DNA from: a virus
Lineage: Duplodnaviria; Caudoviricetes
Reading direction: 5' to 3' (one strand)
Length of the DNA stretch: 28,029 nt
IMG/VR virus record: IMGVR_UViG_3300008255_000386
Coordinates: 1 to 28,029 of that record
Below the pieces are notes generated by a model. The model ran no database searches, was not told the DNA's origin, and saw only the letters and a list, made by a program, of their open reading frames with translations. Of the stretch, positions 1 through 27,229 are shown one piece after another (within the stretch, counting starts at the first letter, position 1; each line of letters opens with the position of its first letter). The position numbers and the translations under genes were made by a program.

Positions 1-1
1 C

Positions 2-589: not shown

Positions 590-593
590 AAGA

Positions 594-624
594 AAAGCCG
601 CAAGCCCTTGCGGGCTGCGGCTTT
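594..624. terminator. Hairpin/intrinsic terminator after the recombinase, possibly bidirectional
   Basis: AAAGCCGCA...TGCGGCTTT stem with inner GCCC/GGGC, flanked by A and T runs. Confidence 0.6.
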
Positions 625-643
625 GAAAGTCATTACTATGTAG

Positions 644-676
644 ATCATACGCTCTACCGAACTGAGCTAGGGCGGC
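644..676 (-). tRNA. 5' half of a tRNA (probably Thr), broken in the anticodon loop; putative attachment site
   Basis: Minus strand GCCGCCCTAGCTCAGTTCGGTAGAGCGTATGAT gives the acceptor 5' strand, D-arm and 5' anticodon stem, followed by non-tRNA sequence. There is no anticodon or T-arm. Thr is guessed only from the GCC start. Confidence 0.8.
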
Positions 677-777
677 AATGAGTAGAACTCTAAGTCTTTA
701 ATATTTAAAACAAAAAAGACATTTTCCTGATCTTGGCGGGTTTTACGGACCGCATAAACAGGGGGTTGAGTGCCGGG

Positions 778-806
778 ATTATGCTGGCATCGTCCTTATT
801 TGTCAA
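778..806 (-). promoter_or_regulatory. Sigma70-type promoter aimed at the tRNA half
   Basis: TTGACA-17 bp-CATAAT followed by a GC-rich discriminator (CCCGGCAC), as in stable-RNA promoters. Confidence 0.7.
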
Positions 807-867
807 CGGCCAATTCCCCAACCCTCTCCGGTATCGCGCGGATACATAGGGGTTGGCAAGGCAATAG

Positions 868-1116
868 TTAACCCCCTGGCCAACACAATATTACGGTGAC
901 AAACGTCGCTCCCGCTATCGTTGCCGCAGCGTCGAGAAGCTCGGGAGTTCCCCTGCTTAGCAACTTATCCCAAATAATTTCCTTGCTAATGCCAATCGCA
1001 ACTGCAATGCCGCAGGCGATTAGCGGGGCAAAAATCAGCGATAACAGCAGAGTCAAATACACCCCGAGATTAAAATGCCCTTGTTTGTCTGCTGGGATTC
1101 TGTCCAGCAAGGGCAT
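868..1116 (-). CDS. Small membrane protein, hypothetical
   Basis: 82 aa with hydrophobic segments and DKxxHF...KE...D pattern; starts 3 nt after the upstream stop. Confidence 0.65.
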   Translation of the reverse strand: MPLLDRIPADKQGHFNLGVYLTLLLSLIFAPLIACGIAVAIGISKEIIWDKLLSRGTPELLDAAATIAGATFVTVILCWPGG

Positions 1117-1118
1117 AC

Positions 1119-1541
1119 TCACAAACCCAACCCCGCACGTTGATCCCGCCCCCATTGCCGCACCTCTTCGACAAACGCGCCGAACGCCAGCAACTCCTCC
1201 TGTTCGCCGGGTTGAAAAACATAAACTCCCAGCGCCGCGCCGACGCCGATCCGCGCAAAATACTGTTCCTCCGACAAGCTGTATTTTGCGCGGATGCGCT
1301 CCTCCATCCGCACGCTGATCAATTTAACGTGTGGGCTGGCGGCCTTGATTGCTGTTTTAATCTCGTCGGTTACATCCGCCACAGCAACGCTGATCTGTTC
1401 CGGTTGCGCGGGCAACTCATACGGGCCGCTGATATAGGTGGTGCCATCATCCAGCGTGCAGAGTTCGGTCACCTCGTCGCCCTGCGCGGTGTATGTCGTG
1501 TATGCGTCTGACGTTTTGCGGTAGCTGTAAATTTTGGCCAT
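1119..1541 (-). CDS. Hypothetical phage protein downstream of the DGR RT fragment
   Basis: ATG at 1541 with AAGGAGA RBS; 140 aa. Confidence 0.75.
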   Translation of the reverse strand: MAKIYSYRKTSDAYTTYTAQGDEVTELCTLDDGTTYISGPYELPAQPEQISVAVADVTDEIKTAIKAASPHVKLISVRMEERIRAKYSLSEEQYFARIGVGAALGVYVFQPGEQEELLAFGAFVEEVRQWGRDQRAGLGL

Positions 1542-1552
1542 GGTCGATCTCC

Positions 1553-1840
1553 TTAATAATACGCACAAGGTGCGGTAGTGAGGCGGTTTTTTTTTGCATG
1601 TCCGAGAATCGATATTACGGCGAGATGATCGCCTTTTTTGACGGCGCTGCGGAATTTATACAAACTGTGCTTGCGGATCAGGCGACGGTTGCGCCAGGTG
1701 CGATAACCGACGAAATTGACGCCGCGTTTCACCCGCTGGATGGTGGTGTGCGAATATTCCAGATGCAGATTGTCGGCGATAAACTCACCGATGCGGGTGC
1801 GCAGCTGCAGCGCGTCATCGCGACTGACTCCCATAACGTC
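1553..1840 (-). pseudogene. DGR-type reverse transcriptase, C-terminal remnant
   Basis: VMGVSRDDALQLRTRIGEFIADNLHLEYS...RGVNFVGYRTW..RRLIRKHSLYKF...SILGHAKK matches the post-YxDD helix, domain 7 (GxxFxGY) and thumb. Domains 1-5 are absent. There is a probable +1 frameshift in an A9 run. Confidence 0.8.
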
Positions 1841-1856
1841 AAGTCCTCGCTATCGC

Positions 1857-3509
1857 TCAGACCGCAGGGTAACAGGCGGCACGGAACCCGGTGCTGGCGC
1901 TCGAGGACGACCGGTGGCTGGACAAATAGAGCGCCCAGACCCCCGCGCGCGTCGTGAAGCCCCAATGGAACGACGAAAGCAGGGACAGCTCGTGGAGGAT
2001 ATATTGATAATAATAGTCGGTGCCGAATAGGTTAGTGCCAGCCACTGATACCCCGGTGTCATCCGCTGGTAGTCCCAAGCCAGCCAGCTCCCAGGGGGCG
2101 CCGTTGATTCCGTTTGCCACGACCTGCGCTGCGGCGTTGCCGAAAAACTGAGCAAATCCATTATTGGGATAAACTGTAGCGAACTCTGGCGTGATCGGCG
2201 TCATCATCGCCGCAACACCGGCGGCACCCCAATGATCAGTTGCCAGAGTATTGCCGGCAGTAAACTGCCGCATCTCGGTGTTGTCGGCAGCGCGGTAAAA
2301 GGTGCCGACGGTGGCCGTGCCTCCCGAAATATAGGCGGCGAATGCGTTGGAGTCGACGCCATCCAAAGTGAAATTGTCTGCGTCCAGTACCGTAATCGTA
2401 AATATTTTATAGTTGATCTCTGTCATGCCGACAACGGCGGCGAGTTGCGCGTAGTCTCCCGTCGTCAGGCCATGGCCCACGGCGGTAATCTGGCAGGGGT
2501 TAGCATTGGATGCTGCTGTGATCGCTTTGGTAGTGGCGATGCAGGTCATGCCGATATTGATTTCGTACATCAGGCCGTTTAAATCCGCGACGCCGCAGGC
2601 CTGACCGTTATGAGTGGTTTTGGCAAAGGGTGTGCCGCTGCCGGTTTTTCCGCAGTTAATGTAGCCGTCGCTGGTGTAGGCGATGGTGGCATCGTTTGAG
2701 TCCCCCAGTGCGTTATTGTTGCACCCTTTCGGGAAATTATAGGTGGCATCAAACCACGCACAGTTGGTGGCATTGATCGCGGCCTGGCCATGGGCGAGAG
2801 ATAACAGCGCCAACGCGCCGTGGATCTGACGGGAGTTGCAGAAAAAAATCGAGTCGGGATTAACCGCACCATCCACCCCGTCGCGGCCATGGGCGGCGTT
2901 GAGCGCCTCGTAGTAATAGTTAGTCGTGCAGGCGGTCAGGTCGCTAAACGGATTGTGGTCAGCGGCGGCGGAAAGTGGCAGGCCATTTTGGATTGAGCTG
3001 GCAACAAAGCCGCTGCCAAGGGGGGTTTTACTGGCCTGGTATTTATCAACAAAAAAACCATCCTTTTCCACTCCGCCATCGATAAAGGCGCGGTGCAGGG
3101 CGTAGCCTGCGGCGTTGGCATCCGCGGTTGTATCAAAATCTGTCGCGGATTTTACATCGACGGAGTTAAGCAAAAATGGTGCGTAGGTCGGATTATCGAC
3201 ATGCCCGGCCCGATAGTAAAATTTGGGCACCCAGCACATGATCGAACCATCGGTATACTGATAGTTGCCGTAATGGTCATGGGTCGGGTCAACATACCCG
3301 TAGAGCGGTTGCATGCCGGGGGGTAGGGCGCTGCCGGGGGCGATGCCGACGCCAAAACCGGCGGCTCCAGGGGTGCCGATTTGGTTGGCCGCGCTGCTGG
3401 TGCCGTTAAGTACCGACTCAAGGCCGTCATTGAGATTAGTCAGATTAAGATCCATCTCGGCATGGGTCAGGGCGGCGCCTTTAGTGGCGCGGGTAATAAT
3501 CGTGGGCAT
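1857..3509 (-). CDS. Receptor-binding tail protein with FGE-sulfatase/C-type-lectin fold; DGR target
   Basis: ATG 3509 with AAGGAG RBS. N-terminal RxxKGxxLTxxEMDxNL tail-attachment motif; GFFVDKY and GVADLNGLMYE CLec motifs; C-terminus ...AGVWALYLSSHRSSSSASTGFRAA, typical of DGR variable regions. Confidence 0.85.
   Translation of the reverse strand: MPTIITRATKGAALTHAEMDLNLTNLNDGLESVLNGTSSAANQIGTPGAAGFGVGIAPGSALPPGMQPLYGYVDPTHDHYGNYQYTDGSIMCWVPKFYYRAGHVDNPTYAPFLLNSVDVKSATDFDTTADANAAGYALHRAFIDGGVEKDGFFVDKYQASKTPLGSGFVASSIQNGLPLSAAADHNPFSDLTACTTNYYYEALNAAHGRDGVDGAVNPDSIFFCNSRQIHGALALLSLAHGQAAINATNCAWFDATYNFPKGCNNNALGDSNDATIAYTSDGYINCGKTGSGTPFAKTTHNGQACGVADLNGLMYEINIGMTCIATTKAITAASNANPCQITAVGHGLTTGDYAQLAAVVGMTEINYKIFTITVLDADNFTLDGVDSNAFAAYISGGTATVGTFYRAADNTEMRQFTAGNTLATDHWGAAGVAAMMTPITPEFATVYPNNGFAQFFGNAAAQVVANGINGAPWELAGLGLPADDTGVSVAGTNLFGTDYYYQYILHELSLLSSFHWGFTTRAGVWALYLSSHRSSSSASTGFRAACYPAV
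1860..2000 (-). other. DGR variable region (VR) and IMH
   Basis: Variable positions are NNC/NNT codons between fixed scaffold codons; ends GGGTTCCGTGCCGCC. Confidence 0.7.
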
Positions 3510-3531
3510 GGATGATCTCCTTTTTTTACTG

Positions 3532-6117
3532 TTAAACCACGACCACCAGGCCGATGGTGTCAATTTTATTGATATCGCCGGGGCTGTGGCGCGCCTCGCT
3601 GATTTGCCCGATTTTATCGCCATCCCAGGCGAGGGTGACCGCGTCGCCAAATTCAAGGGCAGAATGATCTAAAAAAACCTCGAACTCGTGGATCCAGCGG
3701 CGGGTGGCGTAGTGCGCGAGATAAAAATCCCGCAGGCTATCCGCCAGGGCTGGATCGGTGACAAAATCGAACAGGAACAGCTCGGGTTGTTCGCGCTCAC
3801 CATATTTGCTGATGCTGTCCAGGTCGCTGGCCTTACTGATCCCCTGATAGGCGCTGTCGCTGCGGGCCTGCCGCCAATCGCGATTAAACAACAAGTGGAT
3901 TTTGTTAAGGATCTCGCTCCGCTCGACCTTGCGGCGACTCCAGATCTTTTTGCCGGCGGCGGCTTTAGGCATGGTGATGGTCTGACTGCTGGTCAGGCTG
4001 TCAGGCCGCAGGATCAGGCGCGGCTGGCCATTCGTGATTTTAAACCAGCAGCGCAACTGAAATGCCCAGGCATCGAGCCAGTTAAGCGCGGTCTGATATT
4101 CGGTGATGGCACCGTTTAGGGCGTAGCCGACAGGCAGACTACCGGTGATCTGCAGTGGCGGGAAGCCGAGGGGGGAAAGCAGATCATCAAAGGCTTGATG
4201 TATAGATACGGTGCGGGTCAGATTAACCAGGACGCTGTCGCCGACCAGGGTGTTTGCGGTGCTGTTGCCAGAGAGGGTAACAGCACCGGTCTTGGTGACG
4301 CTGCCGCTGAGTGTTACCGTGCCGGTTTTATCGACGGTGCCGGTGCTGGTGATAGTGCCGCTGCGGTCGACGGTGCCGGTCTGGGTGACGTCGCCGGTGC
4401 TGGTGATAGTGCCGCTGCGGTCGACGGTGCCGGTCTGGGTGACGTCGCCGGTGCTGGTGATAGTGCCGCTGCGGTCGACGGTGCCGGTACTATACGCCGC
4501 GCCTGCCTTGGTAACATTGGTCGCAGAGATCGAGCCTGAAACCGACACTGTACGTCGGGCAGCAGCCACGGTAATAATTAAACTGCCCGTTCCGCTGACC
4601 GTGCCTGTAATCGCTGGGGTTGTTGACCCCGACACGCTCCCAATCCATGAGCTTCCCGACTGAACCGCACCGTTAACCCGGATAGTTACCGTTCCGGAAC
4701 CCCCGGACAGCTTCCAGGACCAACTATACTCATAAGTGCCATCAATGACAGTTCCTCCTGGATAAGAAAAAGTCGGGGTGACAGATACGTTTGAACCTGA
4801 ATTGCTTGTCTGGGGGATGGCGCTGCCGTATTGTTCCTTTGTGTTATACAGGGTGGTGGTGTGTGAGTGGTTGCCATTGGCTAAACTGATGTTATCACCA
4901 ACAACAATGCCGTTACTGATGGCGATGGTGTCGTAAACGCTGATGGTGTCGCTGATGCCGAGCGTGTTCAGAATCGTCATTAGGTCGCTCACCCCGATGG
5001 TGTCGCTAATTTCGAGCGTGTTCAGAATCGTCATTAGGTCGCTCACCCCGATGGTGTCGCTAACCCCGATACTGTCAGCCAGCGACAGGGTGTCGAGAAT
5101 GCTGAGGCCGTCAGACAGCAGGAGATCAACAGCTTGGCCAATTGTGATATATCCAGGCAACACCACCACAGCATAACCCGCATAGCCTGGTAGCTCGTCG
5201 CCGGGTTGACCCGTGTAGCAAGTGGCAATGGCAGTGATATCAACCTCAGCGTCGCCAACCCGACCATAGATTTTATTCAGCGAGTCGACCGGCAGCGCAC
5301 TGGCGATATAAACAAACTGATTTTTAATTTGCCAGGCGATGGCACCGCGCTGGTGAACCACCGCGACCGTCAAATCATGCCCACGGCTACAGGTGAGCTG
5401 ATCGCCGACAATAGCCCCGATCAATAGCCTTTCCTCATCGACCTGCAAAATATCCCCAACCGTTAGACCCGCCGCATCCGATACTGCAAAGTCGGTCATT
5501 ATTGCATTAATGCTGTTGGGGAGGTTGGTCATGACCCCGGCATCAACCGCCAACGCGGGGAGTTTGTTGACCGTGCCGAAAGGGATGGGGATAACCTTTC
5601 CGACATCATCCGGGTCGGCTTCAGGGTAAAGCTCAAGGTCGACTTTACTGCCAACGTAACCATCCAATTTAATGGTTTCGTCCTGCAACACCAGCCGCAC
5701 TTCGGTTTCGTCGGGCAGTTCCACCGCGTCGACGTAAAAGCGGCGCATCTCCTGCGGCGGATCAGTGGCGGGGTTCAGGCCGCGAAACCATAGATATAAA
5801 CTGACCGGCGACGTTTCGAGCGCGGTATCGGTCGCCAAATCTGCCATACTGGGGCTGGCATCCGGATCAACCAGCAGCGTCAAATCCAGATCGGTAACGC
5901 GGATCTCATTCAGGGCTCCGCTGAGCGCTTCGCGCACCTCACCCCAGGTGGAGATCCAGGGCAGGGTAGTGATGCCGCCGTTCCAGACCGGGATGCTAAA
6001 GGCATCATCGCTGATATAGTAATCGCTGCCGGAGGCCGTCAACTTGATCAGCCAAACCGGGGCGATGCCGGTCTGTTTGGCGAGCTCCGCCGCAAAGGCT
6101 GAGGGGAAAGTTTTCAT
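3532..6117 (-). CDS. Tail tip/baseplate hub protein with internal repeat stalk
   Basis: 861 aa, after the distal-tail genes. GKVIPIPFG and SISKYGERE motifs, C-terminal LEFGDAVTL OB-like end, and internal hexad repeats. Confidence 0.75.
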   Translation of the reverse strand: MKTFPSAFAAELAKQTGIAPVWLIKLTASGSDYYISDDAFSIPVWNGGITTLPWISTWGEVREALSGALNEIRVTDLDLTLLVDPDASPSMADLATDTALETSPVSLYLWFRGLNPATDPPQEMRRFYVDAVELPDETEVRLVLQDETIKLDGYVGSKVDLELYPEADPDDVGKVIPIPFGTVNKLPALAVDAGVMTNLPNSINAIMTDFAVSDAAGLTVGDILQVDEERLLIGAIVGDQLTCSRGHDLTVAVVHQRGAIAWQIKNQFVYIASALPVDSLNKIYGRVGDAEVDITAIATCYTGQPGDELPGYAGYAVVVLPGYITIGQAVDLLLSDGLSILDTLSLADSIGVSDTIGVSDLMTILNTLEISDTIGVSDLMTILNTLGISDTISVYDTIAISNGIVVGDNISLANGNHSHTTTLYNTKEQYGSAIPQTSNSGSNVSVTPTFSYPGGTVIDGTYEYSWSWKLSGGSGTVTIRVNGAVQSGSSWIGSVSGSTTPAITGTVSGTGSLIITVAAARRTVSVSGSISATNVTKAGAAYSTGTVDRSGTITSTGDVTQTGTVDRSGTITSTGDVTQTGTVDRSGTITSTGTVDKTGTVTLSGSVTKTGAVTLSGNSTANTLVGDSVLVNLTRTVSIHQAFDDLLSPLGFPPLQITGSLPVGYALNGAITEYQTALNWLDAWAFQLRCWFKITNGQPRLILRPDSLTSSQTITMPKAAAGKKIWSRRKVERSEILNKIHLLFNRDWRQARSDSAYQGISKASDLDSISKYGEREQPELFLFDFVTDPALADSLRDFYLAHYATRRWIHEFEVFLDHSALEFGDAVTLAWDGDKIGQISEARHSPGDINKIDTIGLVVVV
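4339..4488. repeat. 54-bp exact tandem repeat, about 2.8 copies (TGTVDRSGTITSTGDVTQ)
   Basis: Units start at 4339, 4393 and 4447. Confidence 0.95.
4942..5063. repeat. 54-bp tandem repeat, about 2.3 copies (ISDTIGVSDLMTILNTLx)
   Basis: 4959-5009 is identical to 5013-5063; GATGGTGTCGCT occurs at 4942, 4996 and 5050. Confidence 0.95.
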
Positions 6118-10230: not shown

Positions 10231-10243
10231 ACTTTTAAACCTC

Positions 10244-10318
10244 GTGAGGTGTGAGGGGTGAGAAGTGAGGTGTAAAGACAAGGCCTTGCGGCTCACTCCT
10301 TACGCCTCACTCCTCACC
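10244..10318. repeat. GTGAGGN heptamer array with inverted partner arm
   Basis: Five units at 10244-10278 and four inverted units (CCTCACN-like) at 10291-10318. Confidence 0.85.
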
Positions 10319-17837: not shown

Positions 17838-17930
17838 ATTATAGGGGCGCTTTTTGGGGGGTATGGGAATTTAAGGATATTTAAGGGTTTTTATGGGTAT
17901 TTAAGGATATTTAAGGGTTTTTAGGGGTTG
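17838..17930 (-). promoter_or_regulatory. Putative activator-dependent late promoter with 10-bp tandem repeats
   Basis: TATAAT at 17843-17838 with no -35 consensus; seven 10-bp units (TTAAGGRTWT-like) at 17861-17930. Confidence 0.6.
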
Positions 17931-17942
17931 ACAGGGGTTGGG

Positions 17943-17998
17943 AAACCCACAACATGTAGCGATCAATCTTAAATGATGGCGCTACATGTTGTGGGTTT
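17943..17998. repeat. 19-bp perfect inverted repeat; each arm resembles an NrdR box
   Basis: AAACCCACAACATGTAGCG / CGCTACATGTTGTGGGTTT. Confidence 0.8.
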
Positions 17999-18010: not shown

Positions 18011-18053
18011 TGCGTGTTATGCCGCCGGTGTGGCTGGGTAATGATGGTTAGCT
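18011..18053 (+). mobile_element. Second attI-like site
   Basis: 38/40 identical to 23641-23680; identity ends right after GTTA. Confidence 0.7.
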
Positions 18054-18485
18054 TCTGATTTTAGCACCTGATTCGCGCAGCAGGTCGGCGGCGGACAGCT
18101 CGGTGAGTTTTGGCGATCTCCAGAATTTGGCGACGACCTCAAGGATGGCGATCTGCTCGGGTAGGCGCATGGTACGAACCCGCTGGCTAAGAGCGTCGGT
18201 GTCAACGCTCCATTTTTCGGCCAGCCCGTCGAGGCGACCGGCCTCAGCGATGTCGGCCCACAAAAACCGGGCCGGATCGGTGTCACGGTGATCAGTGTCG
18301 ATGACCGTGGCGTTGAGCAGATCGCAGATCAGCGACCACTCAGATTCTGCCATTTCCGGGCACTCGGCGGCGGTGATTGCACCGTAGCGTCTGACGATGT
18401 TGTTGATGCGGCCGGAGAGGCTTTCGACCTCGCCGATAATAACTTCGGTGGCGTCGGTCAAATAGATGGATTTTCGGCTGGACAT
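18048..18485 (-). CDS. Hypothetical protein, possible N-terminal ribbon-helix-helix
   Basis: RKSIYL...SLSGRINNIVRRY; AAGGAG RBS. Confidence 0.7.
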   Translation of the reverse strand: MSSRKSIYLTDATEVIIGEVESLSGRINNIVRRYGAITAAECPEMAESEWSLICDLLNATVIDTDHRDTDPARFLWADIAEAGRLDGLAEKWSVDTDALSQRVRTMRLPEQIAILEVVAKFWRSPKLTELSAADLLRESGAKIRS

Positions 18486-18532
18486 AGGGGTCTCCTTGGT
18501 TGGGGCCGGTTTCCCGGCCCCGATAGTTGTTA

Positions 18533-19300
18533 TTATATGGTAACGCTGGCGATGATCTCGAGCGGTTTAATCCGGGTGACACAACGCTTGCCGGTGGAGC
18601 ATGGTCCAATCTCGTTGCCCGACACTTCAACACGGGCGATGACCAGGCTCTGGTGCTCGCTGGCGTCGCCGAAAATATTATTCTGATGCGCAGCGGACAG
18701 AACCTCATCGAGGCTGCGGTAGTAATAAAATCCGCCGGTGTGATCGTCTGTAGCTTTCTCGGTGCGGGTTTTGCCCAGCGGCCAGGGCGACCCATCCCAG
18801 ACGGAGACGGGATTGCCGGACTCGTCGAGGGTCAGGGCTTTGTAGCCGTGGCGGTGTTCCTGGCCCTTGACCTTGAGGCGGCTTTTGCCTTCGATAACTT
18901 CGATGGCGTAGCCGATGACCTGGCCGGAGGACTTGGCTGCCTTGGCAGCAACAGCCTTCTGTGCTTCGGCGACTTTGACGCCTTTTCCGCATTTGGCGAT
19001 GAGGTAGTAGGTTTTTGAAAGAGTTTTGACGCCGTACTTGCTGCCTTCAACCTCGCGGCAGCAGAGCAGCGCTTTTGTCGCGGCGGGGTTAATGTCATAA
19101 AGCTCGTGATGCAGGGCGGAGCCATCCCAGCGGCCCTTGCGGTCACGGCTGAGGGTGTCATGGCTGGCCGGGAGTTTCTTCCCGGCCAGTTTGACCAGAT
19201 TCCAGGCGGTGGCGAGAAGGGCGCGATGCTCGGGTTCGGTGGTGTGGCTGGTGATGAGTTCGCCATAGCTGCTGCGGGTCAGTGTGGTTTGAGTGGTCAT
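18533..19300 (-). CDS. Hypothetical accessory protein
   Basis: 255 aa, AAGGAG RBS, own promoter upstream. Confidence 0.75.
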   Translation of the reverse strand: MTTQTTLTRSSYGELITSHTTEPEHRALLATAWNLVKLAGKKLPASHDTLSRDRKGRWDGSALHHELYDINPAATKALLCCREVEGSKYGVKTLSKTYYLIAKCGKGVKVAEAQKAVAAKAAKSSGQVIGYAIEVIEGKSRLKVKGQEHRHGYKALTLDESGNPVSVWDGSPWPLGKTRTEKATDDHTGGFYYYRSLDEVLSAAHQNNIFGDASEHQSLVIARVEVSGNEIGPCSTGKRCVTRIKPLEIIASVTI

Positions 19301-19372
19301 GGTGGGTCTCCTTTCGCCTTCCCTGTCGGGTGGCGTGTTAAGTGGGGGTTTTGTTGCCCTCTTGTTGTTAAG

Positions 19373-19401
19373 ATAATACTATAGTAATACTATGGTGTCA
19401 A
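19373..19401 (-). promoter_or_regulatory. Sigma70 promoter of the accessory module with overlapping repeat operator
   Basis: TTGACA-17 bp-TATTAT; TAATACTAT occurs twice (19374, 19385). Confidence 0.7.
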
Positions 19402-19437
19402 CAAGAAAAGCGAAGAAATCTAAATTAAAAAAACTCA

Positions 19438-19623
19438 TCACTCTGCCGATACCATGTCATGGTTCCACCGGTCGATGGCCTTCTTAGATCCCATCCATGA
19501 CCCCCTGGCTTTTTTGATCGGAAGCCCGAATTCCCGGTGGTAATTGATCACGGTCACCTCACTACGGCCCAGGTAGCCACAAATTGCTTTCATCCCATTT
19601 AAAATATCATCGCTGCGGGTCAT
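19438..19623 (-). CDS. Small Xis/MerR-like HTH DNA-binding protein, candidate late activator
   Basis: GMKAICGYLGRSEVTV....GLP...GSW......IDRW; directly after terL. Confidence 0.75.
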   Translation of the reverse strand: MTRSDDILNGMKAICGYLGRSEVTVINYHREFGLPIKKARGSWMGSKKAIDRWNHDMVSAE

Positions 19624-19625
19624 GG

Positions 19626-21614
19626 CTACCATCTCCTCGATTTGCGGTTTTGGGGTTGTTGTGCTGGATTATTTTCAGGTTTTGTTTTTTGTTCCGGTTG
19701 AATTTCGCGGGGCATATTTAGTCTGCCCTGCTGCTTGAGCAGCTCGATGTGGTACATGCGATAGGTGGCGCAGTCGGCATAGTCATTCCGACCGGCGCTT
19801 TTGTCGTGCTCCCAGATCCCGAGCTCGTTACGGTATTCGGCGCATAAATGCTTGGCATAATCTTCGAGATCGTTGGCGAGCAGCAAGCTGCCCTTTTGTT
19901 GCTGCTCCAGCTGCCCCTGGGTGTATCCGCTATAGAGCACAAACGCGCCGGGGTCTTCAGGGTTGATGGCGATGCGCCGGGCGAGTTCATCTTTAAAATA
20001 ATGGACATCCAAGGTCACCAGGATCAGCCCGCCGGGGATCGGCTTGCTGGTGCCGGGCCAGCGGTCGAGGGTGGTGTATTTGACCGGGGTATCTTTGCGA
20101 CCGGTCCCCTTGACCGGAATAAACATCGGGTTGGCCTTGCAAAATTCATAAACTTCTTTAGTTCGCGAATGTTTGGGCGGCATCCCGGCTTTGCGCGTAC
20201 CGCCGGAATCGATGAGTGCCGACTGGATGCGGTACTCCCGTTGCTCGGCATCGGTCCAGGTGCGCGCGCTCAGGGTGAGGAGGTCGGCGAAGTTGAGCAA
20301 AAAACCCTTACTGACCAGGTGCGAGGTTCCGGCGTCTCCGTAGGCGATGGCGGCCAGCTCATAATAAAATCCGCTCTGCTGGGTATCGACCTGCAGGGCG
20401 AGGCAGGCGCTGCCGGTCGGGACCAGATCGCGCGGGCGATCATCACACAGGGATAAAAGTACCTTGTGGTCGGCAGCCGCTTTGGGTGGGTCGTAGTTTT
20501 CGACGGCGTAGCCGTTGGCCCAGGCGATCTTTGCGGCGGTGTCGCCGATTTCGGCCTTGGCCTTGGCGGCGCAAATCTCGCTCATTTTGATCTGGGGCAG
20601 ATACCATGCCGGCAGGTGGTAGCCGATACTGACCGGGGCGCTGATCTCGCCGCCCTTGATAGCGACATCGCGGCCATTGACGTAACTGCTTTTGCGGTCC
20701 TGCTCATCCCAGTCAGCACCGCAGGCGTTGCAGGAGTAGGCGAGCTTAACAGTGCCGTTTTTGATGTCCTCTTCCCGTGCGTCGGCCGGAATGACAAAAC
20801 CATCAGGGCTCATGCGGATCTGTTCATCACAATGTGGACATTTGGCGGTGCGGCTCCAGACCTGCTGGCAGGCCATGGTTTTTTTGTAGATAAAGCCCTG
20901 CGCCGGGGTGCTGGCGTAGATCAGCATACTGCTGTCATCATCGCGCCCGCGCTTTTCGAACAGGGTGAGAATGTCGGTCTCTTTGCCGACTCCTTTGGTG
21001 TCCATTTTGTCGATTTCATCGGCGATATTGAGCTTGCCGAACCAGCCGGCGACAGATCCGGGGCTTCCGGCCCAGGCGGGCTTTAAGCCGGTGCCGTTTT
21101 TGAACTTGATTTTTTTGCGGGTGGTGTCATCTGCATAACTGCTCAGCAGCCTGGCGCTGCGCGGGCTGGCTTTCAGCACCGGGATGATGCGATCACCAAC
21201 TTCTTCTTTAGCTTTTTCCTCGGAGGGCATCAGCCAGAAGACATTGCCCGACTCAAAACCGCGGTCGATTTTATACATGGCGGTATTTAACAAAATGTTG
21301 GTCTTGCCGCCGCGCTCGGTCATACACAGGCAGACGGTGCGCACGCTGGGCAGGCCGATCAGGTCCATGATCTTTTTTGCGTGGGGGATCAGCTCATTGC
21401 GCCAGGGGCCGGGGTGGGCATCGATCGGCGTGACGCGGCGGTATTTTTCGGCGTAGTCGCTGATGCTGATATCTTCCGGCACTTCCATCGCTTTTTTGAG
21501 CGAGCGATGAAAGCTGAACTCAACCACCTGGCCGGAACAGGCGGCGCGCAAATGCGCGGGCAAAAAATCCGGGATGGCGGTGGTTTGCCTGATATCGAGG
21601 GCCAGGTTGACCAT
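19626..21614 (-). CDS. Terminase large subunit, GpA family
   Basis: PGPWR, ERGGKT (Walker A), ADEID (Walker B), STP, CPHC/CNAC, VDTQ and IDSGG motifs. Confidence 0.92.
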   Translation of the reverse strand: MVNLALDIRQTTAIPDFLPAHLRAACSGQVVEFSFHRSLKKAMEVPEDISISDYAEKYRRVTPIDAHPGPWRNELIPHAKKIMDLIGLPSVRTVCLCMTERGGKTNILLNTAMYKIDRGFESGNVFWLMPSEEKAKEEVGDRIIPVLKASPRSARLLSSYADDTTRKKIKFKNGTGLKPAWAGSPGSVAGWFGKLNIADEIDKMDTKGVGKETDILTLFEKRGRDDDSSMLIYASTPAQGFIYKKTMACQQVWSRTAKCPHCDEQIRMSPDGFVIPADAREEDIKNGTVKLAYSCNACGADWDEQDRKSSYVNGRDVAIKGGEISAPVSIGYHLPAWYLPQIKMSEICAAKAKAEIGDTAAKIAWANGYAVENYDPPKAAADHKVLLSLCDDRPRDLVPTGSACLALQVDTQQSGFYYELAAIAYGDAGTSHLVSKGFLLNFADLLTLSARTWTDAEQREYRIQSALIDSGGTRKAGMPPKHSRTKEVYEFCKANPMFIPVKGTGRKDTPVKYTTLDRWPGTSKPIPGGLILVTLDVHYFKDELARRIAINPEDPGAFVLYSGYTQGQLEQQQKGSLLLANDLEDYAKHLCAEYRNELGIWEHDKSAGRNDYADCATYRMYHIELLKQQGRLNMPREIQPEQKTKPENNPAQQPQNRKSRRW

Positions 21615-22345
21615 TATTCGTCCTCATCCTCATCAAATTCAATACTGAAATCACCGGCCGCATAGACCACCGAAAAGGTGGTGTGGAGCGCCTGTTGGGT
21701 GATGGCGCGGATCTGCATTTCCCGCGTCGGGTCACCATTACAGGCATTGATCAGCACCGGCGTGGCTTTTTTGAGCTGATGCAGCGCTTCCTCCATAATC
21801 CGTACCGCTAACGCCGCTTCGCGCTCGTAAACGACGGTGCGCTCAATCCAGTTATGGCTTTCTTTGCGCCCTTCGCGCTCGCGCTTTTCGACCTCAAGCA
21901 CGAGTTTTCTTTCTTCGAGCGCGCTGATCCGCTCGGCGCGGTCATCGTCATAGGATACCCGTGCAGGTTGCTCCAGATGCTCCTTGGCGTAGCGCATCAG
22001 ATCGCTCAGCAGGATGCGCTTGCCGACGCCGGTGAATAGATGGCTGTCCTGGCTGAATTTCCCGCCGCTGACCTTGTAGCCAAGTTCGAGCAAATATTCG
22101 CGCGCCTCGGCCTGTTTATCAAAACTGCGCTCGGTGGTGACAACTTTTTTAGGCAGATAAACCGGCAACAGTCTGGCTATACACTCGGACAATCCTTCAC
22201 GGGCAGCGTCAAGATCGCGTTTATTTGTGGCCGTCGGGGACACTTGATAAGCTTTGAGAGTCTGCTCTTTGGCCGCTCGCAGGATGTTCAGTTCGGCTTT
22301 GTCGCTGTCACTGGCTTTACTGAGAAGTTTTTTAAATTCAGGCAT
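21614..22345 (-). CDS. Putative terminase small subunit
   Basis: TAATG-coupled to terL; HTH-like middle and coiled-coil C-terminus as in gpNu1. Confidence 0.6.
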   Translation of the reverse strand: MPEFKKLLSKASDSDKAELNILRAAKEQTLKAYQVSPTATNKRDLDAAREGLSECIARLLPVYLPKKVVTTERSFDKQAEAREYLLELGYKVSGGKFSQDSHLFTGVGKRILLSDLMRYAKEHLEQPARVSYDDDRAERISALEERKLVLEVEKREREGRKESHNWIERTVVYEREAALAVRIMEEALHQLKKATPVLINACNGDPTREMQIRAITQQALHTTFSVVYAAGDFSIEFDEDEDE

Positions 22346-22349
22346 GGCT

Positions 22350-22637
22350 TTAACCCCGTGAGGTGTGAAGCGTGAGGGGTGAGGTGTAATAGCCACGCGC
22401 GGCGTTTTTTGCGATGGTTTCGGCGATCAGCTGATCGACATAGGCCGGACCTTTTTCTAAAATTTTCCGTCGCCAGTAGGTCTCTGAACTGTGCATCAGA
22501 TCTACCATTTCGAGTTCTTCTTCGCGCTGGTCTTTTGCGTTGGAGACCTCGACAGCTTCGCTCAGCACATGATCTAGCTGGATCTCTGAGTCGTTTAGCA
22601 CAACAAATTTGGCGGCGGGAAAATTAAAGTTGATCAT
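22350..22637 (-). CDS. Hypothetical protein (possible MazG-like helical fold)
   Basis: HVLSEAVEV, EMVDL..S.ET and KNAARGYY motifs; AGGAG RBS overlapping the intI stop. Confidence 0.6.
   Translation of the reverse strand: MINFNFPAAKFVVLNDSEIQLDHVLSEAVEVSNAKDQREEELEMVDLMHSSETYWRRKILEKGPAYVDQLIAETIAKNAARGYYTSPLTLHTSRG
22358..22392. repeat. Second GTGAGGN heptamer array
   Basis: GTGAGGT GTGAAGC GTGAGGG GTGAGGT GTAATAG. Confidence 0.8.
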
Positions 22638-22647
22638 AGCGTAGCTC

Positions 22648-23622
22648 CTAGGCGACCAGGTCAAGCGGGCTGATGACTCCGCTGGCCTTGCCGGTGACGT
22701 GTGTATAAATCTGCGTGGTGCGCACGTCGGCATGGCCGAGCAGTTCTTGCAGGGTGCGGATATCAGTTCCGGATTCGAGCAGGTGGGTTGAGAAGCTGTG
22801 GCGGAATGTGTGGCAGCCGCCGGGCTGTGATATTCCGGCGCGCCGCACTGCGGCTTTTACGGATTTTTGCAGGGCCGATGGGTGCAGGTGGTGGCGGCAC
22901 AGGCTACTTTCTTCGCCAGATCTGTTCCAGGCGGTTGGAGCGGAGGCCGGAAAAACGTACTGCCAACCCCATTGCAACGGTGCCTGGGGATATTTGCGGA
23001 CCAGCGCTGGCGGCATACTGCAACCGATGCTGGCGGCCTGGTCGCTGTCGTGGATCTGGCGCAAATCAGCGAGATGCTGCTGCAGGGCTATGACGATGGA
23101 GCCGGGCAAACAAGTGACACGATCCTTATCACCCTTTCCACAGCGGACAATGATTTTTCGGCGGTCAAAATCGAGGTCCTTGACGCGCAGCCGCAGAACT
23201 TCGGAGAGCCGCAGACCCGCACCGTAAAGCAGCGATGCCATCAACCAGGGGCCATCGGCCAGTTGATCGAGGATGGCGGTGACTTCCTGTCGAGTCCAAA
23301 CTGAAGGCAGGCGGCGGCTTTTTTTGGCGCGCAGCGCGTCGATGGCGCCGAGTTCCTGGCCGAGGACCTGGGTGTAAAAAAATAGCAGGGCATTGAATGC
23401 CTGATTTTGCGTAGCGGCCGAAACACGCCGCTGCTTAGCCAGCCAGGTGAGAAAGGCTTCGACCTCTGGGGCGCCGGTTTGCGCTTTATTGGAGGCGACC
23501 CGGGAGGCATGAAAGGAGATGTAGCGGCGCACCCATCCGACATAACTTTTTTCCGTGGCGAGCGAGTAATGTTTCAGCCGTATTTTCTCGCGCATTTTGT
23601 TGATAATCTCACTGTTTTTCAT
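22648..23622 (-). CDS. intI: Integron integrase
   Basis: HYSLATEKSY, STQNQA-like SAATQNQAFNALLF, YGAGLRLSE, GKGDKDR, the IntI-specific insert PPALVRKYP..W.WQYVFP, RHHLH and HTFRHSF...LLGH..VRTTQIYTHV. Catalytic residues are intact. Confidence 0.95.
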   Translation of the reverse strand: MKNSEIINKMREKIRLKHYSLATEKSYVGWVRRYISFHASRVASNKAQTGAPEVEAFLTWLAKQRRVSAATQNQAFNALLFFYTQVLGQELGAIDALRAKKSRRLPSVWTRQEVTAILDQLADGPWLMASLLYGAGLRLSEVLRLRVKDLDFDRRKIIVRCGKGDKDRVTCLPGSIVIALQQHLADLRQIHDSDQAASIGCSMPPALVRKYPQAPLQWGWQYVFPASAPTAWNRSGEESSLCRHHLHPSALQKSVKAAVRRAGISQPGGCHTFRHSFSTHLLESGTDIRTLQELLGHADVRTTQIYTHVTGKASGVISPLDLVA

Positions 23623-23640
23623 GGGTTGCGCTCCTTTCTG

Positions 23641-23683
23641 TGCGTGTTATGCCGCCGGGGTGGCGGGGTAATGATGGTTATGG
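23641..23683 (+). mobile_element. attI site
   Basis: Immediately upstream of and divergent from intI. Core GTTATGG at 23677, TAA half-site before it, and direct repeat GTTATGC 31 bp upstream. Confidence 0.75.
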
Positions 23684-24055
23684 CCTAAACCTGCATTTTC
23701 CGCTGGCCAGAAGAATGGCTTCAAGCTCCTCCACTCCCCTCTTCCCAAAATTCTGGATATTCATCAGTTCTTTTCTACTTTTCTTTTCCAATTCTTCCCA
23801 TGTGCTGATCCGTGCATTTTTTAAACAGTTGCTAATTCTAACGGAGAGAAAGGTTGTGTCTATTACACCTGTAGCCCCCATCTCAATAGCTTTTCCAAGG
23901 TTTTTTTCTGCTCTTTCTTCTCTCTCAGCCTTGAGAATCATTTGCCGCGCAAAGTCCTTCGATCTTCCGAGTTCGTCTCCAATCTGCTGCAATGTTTTTC
24001 CTTCGCGCCTCAAACTAAGTGCTCTCAGTCTTCTTTCTTTGTGATCCACTGGCAT
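23678..24055 (-). CDS. Cassette gene: sigma-region-4-like HTH fused to an RNA polymerase alpha-CTD-like domain
   Basis: EGKTLQQIGDELGRSKDFARQM followed by LSVRISNCLKNARI....L......L..IQNFGKRGVEEL, which matches RpoA LTVRSANCLK...PNLGKKSL; AAGGAG RBS. Confidence 0.85.
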   Translation of the reverse strand: MPVDHKERRLRALSLRREGKTLQQIGDELGRSKDFARQMILKAEREERAEKNLGKAIEMGATGVIDTTFLSVRISNCLKNARISTWEELEKKSRKELMNIQNFGKRGVEELEAILLASGKCRFRP

Positions 24056-24136
24056 TTCTCCTTTAAAAGGCCATAACCAATCTATCCAGCGGACCGGCTA
24101 TACGCTTCGCGTCCGCCGGTCCGCTGATCTCAAGCG
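23678..24136 (+). mobile_element. Integron gene cassette
   Basis: Starts G|TTATGGCC, and its attC begins GGCCATAAC (9-bp complement). About 44% GC by hand count of 23701-24060, lower than the flanking intI. Confidence 0.85.
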
Positions 24137-24142
24137 TTACCA
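24071..24142 (+). mobile_element. attC site (72 bp)
   Basis: R'' CCATAAC, 5 nt, L'' TATCCAGC (extra C), 12-bp stem CAGCGGACCGGC/GCCGGTCCGCTG, L' GCTGATC, 6-nt spacer TCAAGC, R' GTTACCA. Confidence 0.92.
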
Positions 24143-24152
24143 CGGTGCCCGG

Positions 24153-24368
24153 TCAACTCTCACGCTCGCAGAGCGCTTGACGTAAATAAACTGCCAGATC
24201 TAAGGCTTCCTGATAGGCATCAACCAAGGGATCGCGGCCATTATGGGCCTGGAGCGGTGTTCCGTATTTTTTGCGGCCTATCTGGTCGCGCTCTTTCATA
24301 TCGGCGATGACCAGTTTCCAGATGGGGGTTGAGGTATTTTTGATAGGGGCTGATTCTGGTTTATTCAT
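24153..24368 (-). CDS. Small conserved phage protein
   Basis: ERDQIGRKKYGTPL...DAYQEALDLAVYL motif; ATGA-coupled. Confidence 0.75.
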   Translation of the reverse strand: MNKPESAPIKNTSTPIWKLVIADMKERDQIGRKKYGTPLQAHNGRDPLVDAYQEALDLAVYLRQALCERES

Positions 24369-24460
24369 TTTGTGACCTCTGCGAGAGCAAATCCGATAGC
24401 GACCAGGGCGACGCTGAAACAAATTATGGAGATAATGAGCGATACGGTACGTTTTTTCAT
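24365..24460 (-). CDS. 31-aa single-TM peptide (not in ORF track)
   Basis: MKKRTVSLIISIICFSVALVAIGFALAEVTK*; GAGGAG RBS; ATGA overlap. Confidence 0.6.
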   Translation of the reverse strand: MKKRTVSLIISIICFSVALVAIGFALAEVTK

Positions 24461-24570
24461 TTCTAAATCTCCTCGATGGATTCGATCTAGCAGCCACTAA
24501 AAACCTGTTTAGTGATCAGGTGTAACTCGGCGGCGTCCATGAACCGATTATTTTTTTAGGCAGTCATAAT

Positions 24571-24828
24571 GATTACGCCTAGTAGCTATTTATTACGCTT
24601 GATTACGGTTGTGATTACGGTTTAAGTCTTTAATATTGTTGAATGATTACTATTATTACGGTTTAAAATAGTTATATATGCGCGCGCGCGTGTGTGTTGT
24701 TTATATATTGGCGCGTGTTATTTCTCGCGCGTATACGCATAAGTTTTGCCGTAATAAGCGTAATAAGTGAATAAAAACGAGTAGTTAAACCGTAATCATA
24801 AGCGTAATCAGGCGTAATAAGCGTAATC
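24571..24828. repeat. Putative replication origin: opposed ATTACG iterons
   Basis: Six ATTAC(G) copies on the left and six CGTAAT copies on the right, around an AT-rich/alternating purine-pyrimidine core, directly after the primase gene. Confidence 0.75.
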
Positions 24829-27229
24829 ATTCGATAAAGTCTCCTGCGGTTTTGAAGTTTTCGTGGCATTCTGCGAGCCATTGCTCCTGATTAATCCCTT
24901 CATTTTTTGCATATTCTCCCGATGCCAACAGATCAATTGCAGGAATAACCATTTTTCTGGTAGTTCTATCCGGTGAGTTTGGGTATGTACGTACCGGAAA
25001 TGGACCTATTCGCCAGCCGGGCTGCATATTAAGCTCTGCGGTAAATTGCTTGAGATTGCGCGGTGATTTTTCGCAGGTGGTGGCGCAGTATTTTTGATAT
25101 GTGGTGAAAAGATGTGTGGTTTTACAGGGGCAAAATGGCGCTTTCTTAATTTCTCCTGAGTACCAATCGCGCAAAAAACTGCTAACGCTGTCAAGGCTGG
25201 CTTCGATGAGTTGCAGTTTTGCCCTGGTGCGCAGCGGTTTGGTATAAACATCAAATTCATCAAGATTATGATTTTTAAGATAATAGTGCAGGGCGGCGAT
25301 CCCACCGTTGTCCAGTTCGGCGCGTACTTCACCATAAAACTCAGCGGGGAGCTTTTCCGGGGTATGGATAACCATATAGCGCCGGTCATCATGTTCCAGG
25401 ACTAGTGGTGTTGATTCGTTGCTGAGAAAAACGAGGTTTACGTGGTTTCGCTCGTCGTGGGCAGTGACGTTTTTGGGGTTGATCCGAATCCATTCGCCAG
25501 TAACGAAGCTTTTGAGCTTATTTTTGACGTGAAACAGTTCTGTTCTGGCAACAACTTCATCTGCGATGAGAAATAGTTTGCGGCTGGCCCAGTCGTTGAA
25601 TTTATCTTCTATGGCGGACTGGTCAACGATACGCCCATATTCTCCATAAATTGCCATAATCGCTTCAAAAAAAAGATTTTTCCCAGTGCCTTGCGGGCCG
25701 TGAAAAACGAGGGCGGTTTGTAGTTTGGCACCTGGGTGTTGAATGGGGTAGGCAATCCAGGAGAGAACCCATTTGTATACCTCTTCGGGGTTTACTTCGT
25801 TGCTGCAAAGGTAGCGGAGCAACTGCAGGAGTTTGTCGCAGTTCCCTTTTTTTGGTTCGGTGGGCCACCCGCCATAAAGATTACAAAGAATCCGCGGATC
25901 CGCGCCGGCCGGATCAAAACCGACCTCATCAAGCCTCACGACGGCTTTGTGAGCGCGCATATCGCGCCAGCCATGCTCCGGAAGAATGTCGAGAACATCG
26001 GTTTTAGGGATAAGACAATGTTCCTGCCGGTCAAACATGGTGCCTTTACCGCCATAAACAAACGCGAAGCGCTCAATAGCCTCATCGATGCTGAGCATCG
26101 ATTTAAGAGAGGCTCGCAATACCCCGCCCCCCTGTGACGATAAAGGCGCAGCTTCCAAGACAGGTTTAATCCATCCCAGCTCTGACAGTTTGGCGTTGAC
26201 CTGAGCTCCAACGATACGCAGCCCCTCGCTGACATGGAGGTCGTTGAAGTCTGTCGGCCCTTTTTTATCCGTTAATCTATTGGCAAAAACGGGGATAGTC
26301 CAGGCAGCTGAGATGGTAAGTGAGGCGGCCTGAGCGCAGATAATCCCAGCGTTTTGCTTTTTGTGGGGCTGCCCGCAGTGTTGGCACTCGGTGGTGGTGA
26401 CGGTGGTTGTTTTACCGCAGCTGGCACAGGATTGAAGATGATCATCATCGGCACAGATGAGTAGATTGGCGCGCGGGTATTTTTTGTGCAGGGCCTTGCA
26501 GCCGACCAGGAGGTTGTTGGCGCTCCAGAGTGTAGCGACTGGATAGCCGGTGGCTTGGTGGAGGCTGGCGGCGGTGGCATACCCCTCGGTGATCAGGAGG
26601 ATATCGCGGGGATGATCTCCGATGAGGTGCCAGGTCCCGGACATGCCAAGACCTGCTGGGAAAAATTCTTTGTTGCGGCCGATCTTTTCAATGCGTTTAT
26701 GGCCAGTAGGCAGGATAATTTGCAAGCCACGAATAGTGTTGGTTTCGTTGCTCATGGGAATAACGACTTCACCGTTATCGCCGAAGCGGATACCGAAGGC
26801 CTTAACCTGTTTGGCGTCTAGGTAGGGGCTCGATCCAGTTGTTGTGAGTTTATCCCATGAATTTTTAGCCCTGGTAGCCGCCTTGTTTTGCTGGCGCTGG
26901 CGCTCGATTTCGGCTTTTTTGCGGGCGGCGTGTTGCTGGGCTACTAAGGCTTTTTTCTGGTCAGCGCTGAGGTTGTCGGTTTGGCTACGCTGCAGGGTTA
27001 TTTTCTGTTTTCCGTTATCGTTTCCAACGTAAATCCCATAAGCCCCGACGATATAAGATTCTCCATTGATACTAATGGAGCTTAGCCAGTACCACCCACT
27101 TTTTTCGCGTGGGTTGTCTTCGGTTTTGCAGCGCCGTACACGATCCGTATCGACCTCAAGATTTTCGACCAATAGGCCGTAGCCGCGCAGCTGATCAACA
27201 ACATCTGTGTAATTGGCGTGGTAGCTCAT
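24827..27229 (-). CDS. Primase-helicase (TOPRIM plus SF3/DUF5906-type NTPase)
   Basis: TEGYAT, ADDD and DFNDL (TOPRIM) with a CxxC-CxxC insert; GPQGTGKN Walker A; IADE Walker B; FLSN; DRR. Confidence 0.9.
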   Translation of the reverse strand: MSYHANYTDVVDQLRGYGLLVENLEVDTDRVRRCKTEDNPREKSGWYWLSSISINGESYIVGAYGIYVGNDNGKQKITLQRSQTDNLSADQKKALVAQQHAARKKAEIERQRQQNKAATRAKNSWDKLTTTGSSPYLDAKQVKAFGIRFGDNGEVVIPMSNETNTIRGLQIILPTGHKRIEKIGRNKEFFPAGLGMSGTWHLIGDHPRDILLITEGYATAASLHQATGYPVATLWSANNLLVGCKALHKKYPRANLLICADDDHLQSCASCGKTTTVTTTECQHCGQPHKKQNAGIICAQAASLTISAAWTIPVFANRLTDKKGPTDFNDLHVSEGLRIVGAQVNAKLSELGWIKPVLEAAPLSSQGGGVLRASLKSMLSIDEAIERFAFVYGGKGTMFDRQEHCLIPKTDVLDILPEHGWRDMRAHKAVVRLDEVGFDPAGADPRILCNLYGGWPTEPKKGNCDKLLQLLRYLCSNEVNPEEVYKWVLSWIAYPIQHPGAKLQTALVFHGPQGTGKNLFFEAIMAIYGEYGRIVDQSAIEDKFNDWASRKLFLIADEVVARTELFHVKNKLKSFVTGEWIRINPKNVTAHDERNHVNLVFLSNESTPLVLEHDDRRYMVIHTPEKLPAEFYGEVRAELDNGGIAALHYYLKNHNLDEFDVYTKPLRTRAKLQLIEASLDSVSSFLRDWYSGEIKKAPFCPCKTTHLFTTYQKYCATTCEKSPRNLKQFTAELNMQPGWRIGPFPVRTYPNSPDRTTRKMVIPAIDLLASGEYAKNEGINQEQWLAECHENFKTAGDFIE

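Follow-up and report, generated by a model that had tools for sequence, protein, structure and literature searches.

Integrons are generally regarded as bacterial devices. Their presence in phages has been reported as a matter of capture: in the available text of a survey of 10,705 phages (Qi et al., 2023; PMC9892861), three complete integrons and one In0 are described, all of them pieces of host chromosomal or class 1 integrons, along with 17 CALINs, some of which carry methyltransferases. This was the one dedicated paper retrieved by our literature search, which left subscription journals mostly outside and, in the texts as accessible, returned only captured host integrons in phages. The accessible portions of PMC13492144, PMC13366799, PMC8876359, PMC13323075, PMC13676570, 10.64898/2026.09.14.751636, 10.1101/2024.07.02.601686 and 10.1101/2022.09.11.507474 make no mention of IntI clades native to phages or of inverted cassettes. 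We analyzed a 28,029-base virus record (the window, taken at its full length) whose genes include a head module of the lambda type, those for the tail, one for a primase and the C-terminal part of a serine-integrase-like gene. The integron that it carries is a real variant of these systems, probably native to phages, and comparison among relatives provides good evidence for its activity.

The integron and its phage operon

Profile searches identified a primase-helicase gene (24827..27229, − strand) on one side of the integron and terminase genes on the other, as an earlier, sequence-only reading of this DNA had placed it, the origin itself being putative (24590..24838, an AT-rich stretch with inverted short repeats after the primase gene, recognized by its repeats and composition). 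The large terminase subunit (terL; 19626..21614, − strand) was assigned with Pfam and PHROG profiles, and the gene that adjoins it (21614..22345, − strand) is likely the small subunit, terS, by its membership in cluster c3, whose representative matches phrog_57 weakly; used as a query in the viral scan, this likely terS returned no relative. Next to it is a phage gene of 95 aa (22350..22637, − strand) that starts at ATG 22637 and has a homologue upstream of the array in two other loci (L009 and L305). The integrase gene is coupled to this neighbor as tightly as the earlier reading had stated, its stop overlapping the ribosome-binding motif of the ATG 22637 gene. On the opposite flank, a phage gene of 75 aa with PHROG matches (24153..24380, − strand) ends 10 nt beyond the attC site; we rejected it as a cassette because the covariance model described below found no further attC in the window. 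The C-terminal part of the serine-integrase-like gene (phrog_95) occupies positions 65-589 on the + strand; a temperate lifestyle is likely, and the contig is not complete.

Two other features of the backbone were noted. A C-terminal reverse transcriptase fragment (phrog_1423) sits behind a tail gene with a GFR motif at its end (1553-1834 and 1857-3656, − strand), a motif that we take to be a feature of DGR target genes. No DGR template repeat was found in positions 1-4200; the fragment and the GFR tail gene (1553-3656) are likely a DGR remnant. Further, a 41-nt intergenic repeat with GTGAGG-type units is present in two copies that are 85% alike, at 10235-10275 in the tail region and at 22349-22389 before the likely terS.

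A Logan contig of run X1 covers positions 21500-25500 in one piece with 0 differences from the window, and its architecture is shared by dozens of other, independent contigs and by a prophage within a 1.36-Mb contig. These observations leave a next to negligible probability that the region is a chimeric assembly, even considering that X1, the sole full holder, is possibly the source sample and that the contigs of several relatives end at attI. Runs X2-X4 contributed short pieces only, with no informative joint, and no RNA run was among the listed carriers of the sequence.

The integrase gene, intI (22648..23622, − strand), encodes a protein of 324 aa that scores 395.6 bits against the integron integrase model TIGR02249 (cut-off 265). 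Residues R138, K163, H271, R274, H297 and Y306, which we take from general knowledge to be the catalytic set, are invariant in two alignments of IntI relatives, and the IntI-specific insert of the window protein aligns with VchIntIA (2a3v). Hence, the integrase is intact, as had been claimed. An E. coli-type LexA box was present upstream of intI in 2 of 76 regions from viral loci and in 6 of 148 from non-viral ones, which did not separate the two groups; LexA control of intI is common among integrons but does not define them.

The first attachment site, attI1 (23641..23680, + strand), has its G|TT crossover at 23677/23678. This positions the crossover G 55 nt upstream of the intI ATG, in agreement with the divergent attI about 55 bp upstream that the sequence-only reading had described. 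A GTTAT-like box and a GC-rich palindrome upstream of the crossover are conserved, and an alignment of 15 attI sites of the family is conserved exactly to the GTT and diverges beyond it. The putative L box of attI1 is degenerate, with TAAT/TAAC at 4 nt from the GTT versus the 5 nt expected between L and R boxes. Beyond the crossover is a gene cassette (23678..24141) that extends from the core TT to the G of the R' box of attC. A low GC content and complementary ends had been reported for this cassette; both were borne out, the GC content being 0.433 (GC3, 0.43) versus 0.558 for the window and the ends forming a perfect 12-nt inverted repeat (23675-23686 and 24068-24079) that exceeds the 9 nt first noted. 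Complementary ends match the expectation for a circular intermediate.

The attC site (24071..24142, + or top strand) contains R'', L'', L' and R' boxes, with an extra C in the left arm, and was recognized by its fold and by a covariance model. It folded better than all 200 shuffled sequences on either strand (z scores of −4.4 and −5.5). The covariance model, for which 40 bacterial attC sites were taken from forward cassettes of non-viral loci only, matched the 28-kb window once, on the + strand (41.6 bits, E 1.8e-8), consistent with the description of the site as a textbook attC. Its match to the − strand was only partial (10.4 bits), a difference in score that rules out the opposite polarity; Rfam returned no match. 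The site is near-identical to an attC of another locus (L002) that carries a different gene.

The cassette gene (23678..24055, − strand) encodes 123-125 aa, depending on whether it starts at GTG 24049 or ATG 24055. Its start lies beside R'' behind a ribosome-binding motif, and its TAA stop is inside the G|TTA core. Because the polarity of attC is + only and the gene is on the − strand, the gene is truly inverted, which upholds the proposal that the cassette ORF runs opposite to the usual direction and terminates in the attI core. The encoded protein combines an N-terminal HTH with a C-terminal domain resembling that of the RNA polymerase alpha subunit (alphaCTD; PF03118, 52.6 bits; 3gfk_B, 4e-8). 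Residues 62-114 match alphaCTD by sequence (4e-8) and by fold (rmsd of ~2 over ~60 residues), although fold searches with the predicted protein gave no match at E<=1e-3. The domain retains SVR, NCL and NFGK motifs, presumably those through which alphaCTD contacts DNA. Unlike RNA polymerase alpha, however, the cassette protein has the HTH fused N-terminally and no alphaNTD. We predict that it acts as a DNA-binding transcription modulator or as an alphaCTD decoy. Its full-length family relatives have 122-136 aa and its look-alikes are uncharacterized phage proteins; a word-indexed search found no close relative and INPHARED yielded partial alphaCTD matches only. Distant relatives of the gene were located at 25 loci of viral contigs, and none of the 17 that were searched had an attC within 2.5 kb. 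Thus, the HTH-alphaCTD family also exists as a plain phage gene.

Integrase relatives, cassette exchange and solo attI sites

A protein search recovered the nearest IntIs as 37 clusters with 61-77% identity to the window protein, the next ones being at 59% or below. Phylogenetic trees placed the window IntI in a clade with a support of 99 (14 rows of a 232-row tree and 7 rows of a 78-row tree) composed of viral contigs or Desulfuromonadia bins. Every member with readable neighbors was in a phage or prophage context, including the one encoded in the prophage of the 1.36-Mb contig, where the genes include an integrase, a repressor, a primase, intI, terL and a portal. A phage-specific IntI clade, which the earlier reading had put forward as something to look for, was therefore found. 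It bears on the explanation that a phage picked up a piece of a host chromosomal integron and now carries it as a passenger, like the Vibrio and Shewanella cases of Qi et al. (2023). In the available text of PMC9892861, all complete phage integrons are host or class 1 fragments, and two of our own viral loci (L017 and L020) are captures of this type. However, the nearest IntIs are in phages or prophages wherever the context is readable and the host-type IntIs of the same bacterial class, the Desulfuromonadia, are only 52-57% identical to that of the window. The known captured integrons L302-L304 were called forward by the ribosome-binding test described below, and the cargo of the phage arrays is of phage type, as indicated by PHROG matches. 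Captured integrons combine an IntI close to host IntIs with forward cassettes and the window has neither. A captured host-integron origin is thus largely refuted and, in our estimate, very unlikely.

The IntIs of phages are not confined to this clade but spread over at least four groups, one of them nested with IntI1 and with Methylobacter and Nitrosomonas integrases (support 97). A single clade of all phage IntIs was rejected (AU p 0.0115, with groups named after the first tree). Almost all of the phage-context IntIs tested (14 of 15) pass TIGR02249. In 67 of the 88 loci surveyed, intI was followed within 4 kb on its downstream side by an annotated gene; the first such gene was on the intI strand in 63 loci, where it was a packaging gene in 28, and the four on the opposite strand were tyrosine integrases. 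Terminases downstream of the relatives were only 25-59% identical to those of the window; the integron has thus changed phage backbones. A primase-anchored search, which is independent of IntI, retrieved intI in 4, attC in 8 and either of them in 9 of 80 loci, many of them short; these numbers suggest that integron parts are not rare in phages. INPHARED contained only 9 IntI matches, and a metagenome scan (7 of 64 parts) returned mostly bacterial IntIs, which served as controls.

Several individual loci broaden this picture. Virus Rctr41k (KX853513; L301) has a gene at 4680-5678 that is annotated as xerD, scores 383 bits against TIGR02249 and is in line with phage genes; the model detected no attC there. 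Loci L022 and L267 have an IntI within Mu-like phages, as recognized by transposase, Gam-like and Mor-like neighbors. The closest IntI piece (80%; L012, 8001-8516) is truncated to residues 153-324 and retains a long inverted array. Four phage loci (L305, L327, L316 and L317) had attC sites, singly or in arrays, while the stretch retrieved for them contained no intI; checking of the first three showed inverted genes.

Related phages differ from each other by whole cassettes, with differences exactly at G|TT, and their attI sites are conserved to this point and then followed by different cassettes. These results match the earlier suggestions that relatives would carry other cassettes and that the phage IntI is a gene-capture device. 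The cleanest near-identical pairs, which belong to an IntI lineage other than that of the window, are L253/L254 and L256/L257. L253 and L254 have the same sequence up to and including attI and, past the array, agree at 99.98% of 5544 nt, with an additional 886 nt in L254 whose junctions are G|TT; L256 and L257 have different first cassettes. Elsewhere, L005 has two cassettes (685 nt) ahead of the sequence that directly follows attI in L003, L014 carries one cassette twice, L005 and L012 have one cassette in common (96%), and L009 and L305 diverge exactly at the GTT of attC, L305 being without intI. Arrays of up to 8-10 attC sites vary gene by gene. Near the end of its array, L254 also has a cassette with a truncated attC (R'' plus 6 nt and GTT). 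Neither an empty-site copy of this phage, also envisaged in the earlier reading, nor a re-filled one was among the 6 loci retrieved by an attI-subtype pattern scan, of which three are attI-like (L421, L424 and L425, the last identical to L009) and three look like chance matches. The phages likely keep and swap a gene-cassette pool of their own. The cargo of their cassettes included 8 DNA methyltransferases, 3 PAPS-reductase-like proteins, 2 DHH proteins, 1 radical-SAM protein, a Tad2-like protein above the cut-off, an Acb2/Tad1-like one below it and a weak Lar-like match. The methyltransferase and Tad2-like cargo is predicted to counter host defense.

We identified a second, solo attI (attI2; 18011..18050, + strand) between terL and the portal gene that the earlier reading had overlooked. 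This site is in the same orientation as attI1 and identical to it at 38 of 40 positions, a grade of match for which 0 are expected by chance; the attC model detected no cassette at attI2 in the window. A two-gene insert (18048..19401, − strand) with its own promoter-like site (19401-19373, 11/12 matches) adjoins attI2, and the stop of its last gene is in the attI2 core. The insert gave no Pfam or PHROG match and was ruled out as a cassette (18048-19300) because no attC was found. Homologues of its genes are located after terL in L004, L011 and L032 (43-79%) and are reversed in L374. Just past attI2 is a perfect 19-bp inverted repeat (17943..17998), likely the end of the insert transcript, and 5-7 copies of a 10-nt AT-rich unit (17862-17931) separate this hairpin from the head-tail adaptor gene.

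Similar sites in relatives provide context for attI2. The Desulfuromonas bin L167 has a closely similar solo attI downstream of its intI, and this site is filled: the cassette there has an attC, ends that are complementary, and a gene of the Tad2-like type (PF11195, 97.8 bits). Further, L166 has attC sites on either side of intI, attI is present in a second copy in L249, and no intI lies within 4 kb of the attI of L421 and L424. Solo attI sites are thus likely to be additional landing pads for cassettes. The attI upstream of intI in L167 (110-150) apparently holds a tiny gene-less cassette with complementary ends, and the region upstream of intI is duplicated in the opposite orientation in L246 (4560-4681; 122 nt, 89%) and L249 (8494-8523; 30 nt, 100%).

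The two attI sites of the window (18047-23677) form direct repeats at a distance of 5630 nt, with terL, terS and intI between them; recombination of one attI with the other would delete this block or relocate it. The bracketing of the terminase genes by direct repeats would also fit if IntI were mainly an integration or resolution enzyme of the phage and the att sites were attachment sites rather than cassette ends, and the available text of PMC9892861 describes a Vibrio prophage flanked by attC sites. Yet the window already contains the end of a separate serine-integrase-like gene (65-589), in the G060 prophage a separate tyrosine integrase lies at the edge and intI in the middle, and the longest arrays, with their 8-10 attC sites, vary by single genes. 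Together, these observations make integration or resolution extremely improbable as the main role of IntI.

Orientation of cassette genes

To compare viral and non-viral cassettes, we walked arrays with our own attC heuristic, kept only cassettes with both ends complementary, and removed ten duplicate loci before counting orientations. A ribosome-binding-plus-start test called 58 of 121 viral cassettes inverted, 1 forward and 1 both, and 2 of 115 non-viral cassettes inverted, 35 forward and 2 both; the test misses forward genes more, and 61 viral (half of them) and 76 non-viral cassettes were uncalled. When counted by locus, the same test scored 30 of 39 viral loci as inverted and 0 as forward versus 24 of 46 non-viral loci as forward and 1 as inverted, the latter being a Thiobacillus prophage. 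The longest-ORF test scored 55 viral cassettes as inverted, 31 as forward and 35 as unclear; it is unreliable in GC-rich DNA, and ribosome-binding and HMM tests took its place. These figures compare with 5, 91 and 19, respectively, in the non-viral set; 12 of the 31 forward viral calls came from the host-type arrays L017 and L020. With these two loci excluded and two duplicates dropped per list, PHROG matches were obtained for 25 of 95 inverted ORFs, whereas the forward ORFs of these cassettes gave 0 of 91. Furthermore, 39 of 106 viral cassettes, versus 8 of 115 non-viral ones, had a longest reverse ORF with its stop in the core. All 53 model attC matches in 32 phage loci are opposite in strand to intI or the local genes, as in the window, and the polarity of attC flips with the direction of the operon in left arms (L316 and L320). 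Cassettes and loci are non-independent in all of these counts, and with 3 independent pairs on supported branches a sign test had no power. Several IntI lineages of phages have inversion as their rule, and the view taken in the earlier reading was too narrow. In two apparently host-type Desulfuromonadia integrons (L408 and L418), the first cassette is inverted-looking, possibly through leakage from the phage pool.

Viral cassettes had a median size of 337 nt versus 576 nt in the non-viral set, and the gap between attI and intI had a median of 82 nt (n=32) versus 136 nt (n=25). In the window, the start codon of the cassette gene is ~22-28 nt from the R'' edge, which leaves no room for a promoter within the cassette body. 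Promoter-like matches around the integron were at chance level (2 found versus 2.5 expected), including the one inside the cassette ORF, and none was found on the + strand between 22463 and 25000. Expression by read-through would fit both the short attI-intI gap and promoter matches that are no more frequent than chance.

Thus, we consider it highly probable that the locus is a phage-native integron in which IntI likely moves cassettes at attI1 and attI2 and the inverted gene is placed for reading from the phage transcript rather than from a Pc promoter. As we envision the process, IntI would insert cassettes bounded by attC at the neighboring attI, or at the solo second one, and would also excise them. 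The intI gene would be transcribed within the phage operon, its attI retaining the usual divergent polarity, so that cassettes would land upstream of intI with attC polarity pointing away from it. Only genes on the bottom strand of attC would then be expressed, by read-through of the phage transcript. Such a filter would select for small inverted cassettes, each with a ribosome-binding site of its own beside R'', and so for a pool specific to phages. The attC bottom strand, which is the mRNA-like strand, would also serve as lagging template when a fork departs from the putative origin at 24590-24838, an arrangement that may favor attC folding. The earlier suggestion that the adjacent origin could provide the single-stranded DNA for this folding is compatible with the geometry. 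According to the accessible text of PMC5371416, orientation on the lagging template raises attC folding and cassette excision. It is conceivable that the integron is active but that its genes are inverted for a replication reason, or are served by their own promoters, with read-through exerting no selection. This effect of orientation on excision, the mirrored attC polarity on both sides of the primase region and the promoter-like match inside the cassette would all accommodate such an explanation. We nonetheless rate it as unlikely, because the start codon leaves no promoter space in the cassette body, the attI-intI gap is short and the promoter-like matches do not exceed chance. Replication and read-through predict the same geometry and are mutually compatible.

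Comparison with described integrons

The distribution of these elements invites a broader proposal, about which we are evenly divided: temperate phages of environmental bacteria may have domesticated integrons several times and may maintain a mirror-image cassette economy of their own. The variable regions of small genes beside the replication and packaging genes would be arrays of counter-defense and regulatory genes that IntI shuffles and that unrelated phages exchange; solo attI sites, like arrays without an IntI, would be served in trans, and cassettes would be built from ordinary phage genes. The genesis of cassettes is a long-standing open question. If the proposal is true, it would become traceable, since the cassettes would be made from ordinary phage genes; families found both in inverted cassettes and as plain phage genes would provide a route to test it. 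A phage-native form with a reversed logic of expression would also add a site-specific mechanism to phage mosaicism. Moreover, 69 of the 95 inverted cargo ORFs have no PHROG or Pfam match and most of the cargo is therefore unannotated, which makes it a mineable source of candidate anti-defense genes.

The phage form shares with sedentary chromosomal and mobile integrons the IntI family, the divergent attI with its G|TT crossover, the architecture and polarity of attC, and the gain, loss and duplication of cassettes. It differs from them in being embedded in a phage operon, with genes on the bottom strand that are read toward intI. No Pc-type promoter driving genes away from intI fits this arrangement, as the cassette gene points toward intI; the phage form would presumably need no Pc, and the newest cassette would be farthest from the putative promoter. 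Phage cassettes are also smaller, and solo extra attI sites occur. The phage integrons and CALINs of Qi et al. (2023) resemble the window, as far as the text of PMC9892861 was available, in having integron parts in phage genomes and orphan DNA methyltransferases as cargo. That text describes no phage-specific IntI clade or systematic gene inversion, though the 17 CALINs may include inverted arrays.

Inverted-integrase integrons, as described in the accessible part of PMC13323075, are similar in that intI and the cassette genes are read the same way. In those elements, however, intI is flipped relative to attC and the genes are forward. The window instead keeps an outward-facing pair of intI (− strand) and attC (+ strand), and only the cassette gene is flipped. 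Lastly, the anti-phage chromosomal integrons described in the available text of 10.1101/2024.07.02.601686 also deploy small cassettes in the conflict between phage and host. Phage integrons mirror their side of this conflict: here it is the phage that owns the array, and the cargo includes predicted counter-defense proteins. Hence, a phage integron would be the phage-side counterpart of the bacterial defense arrays.
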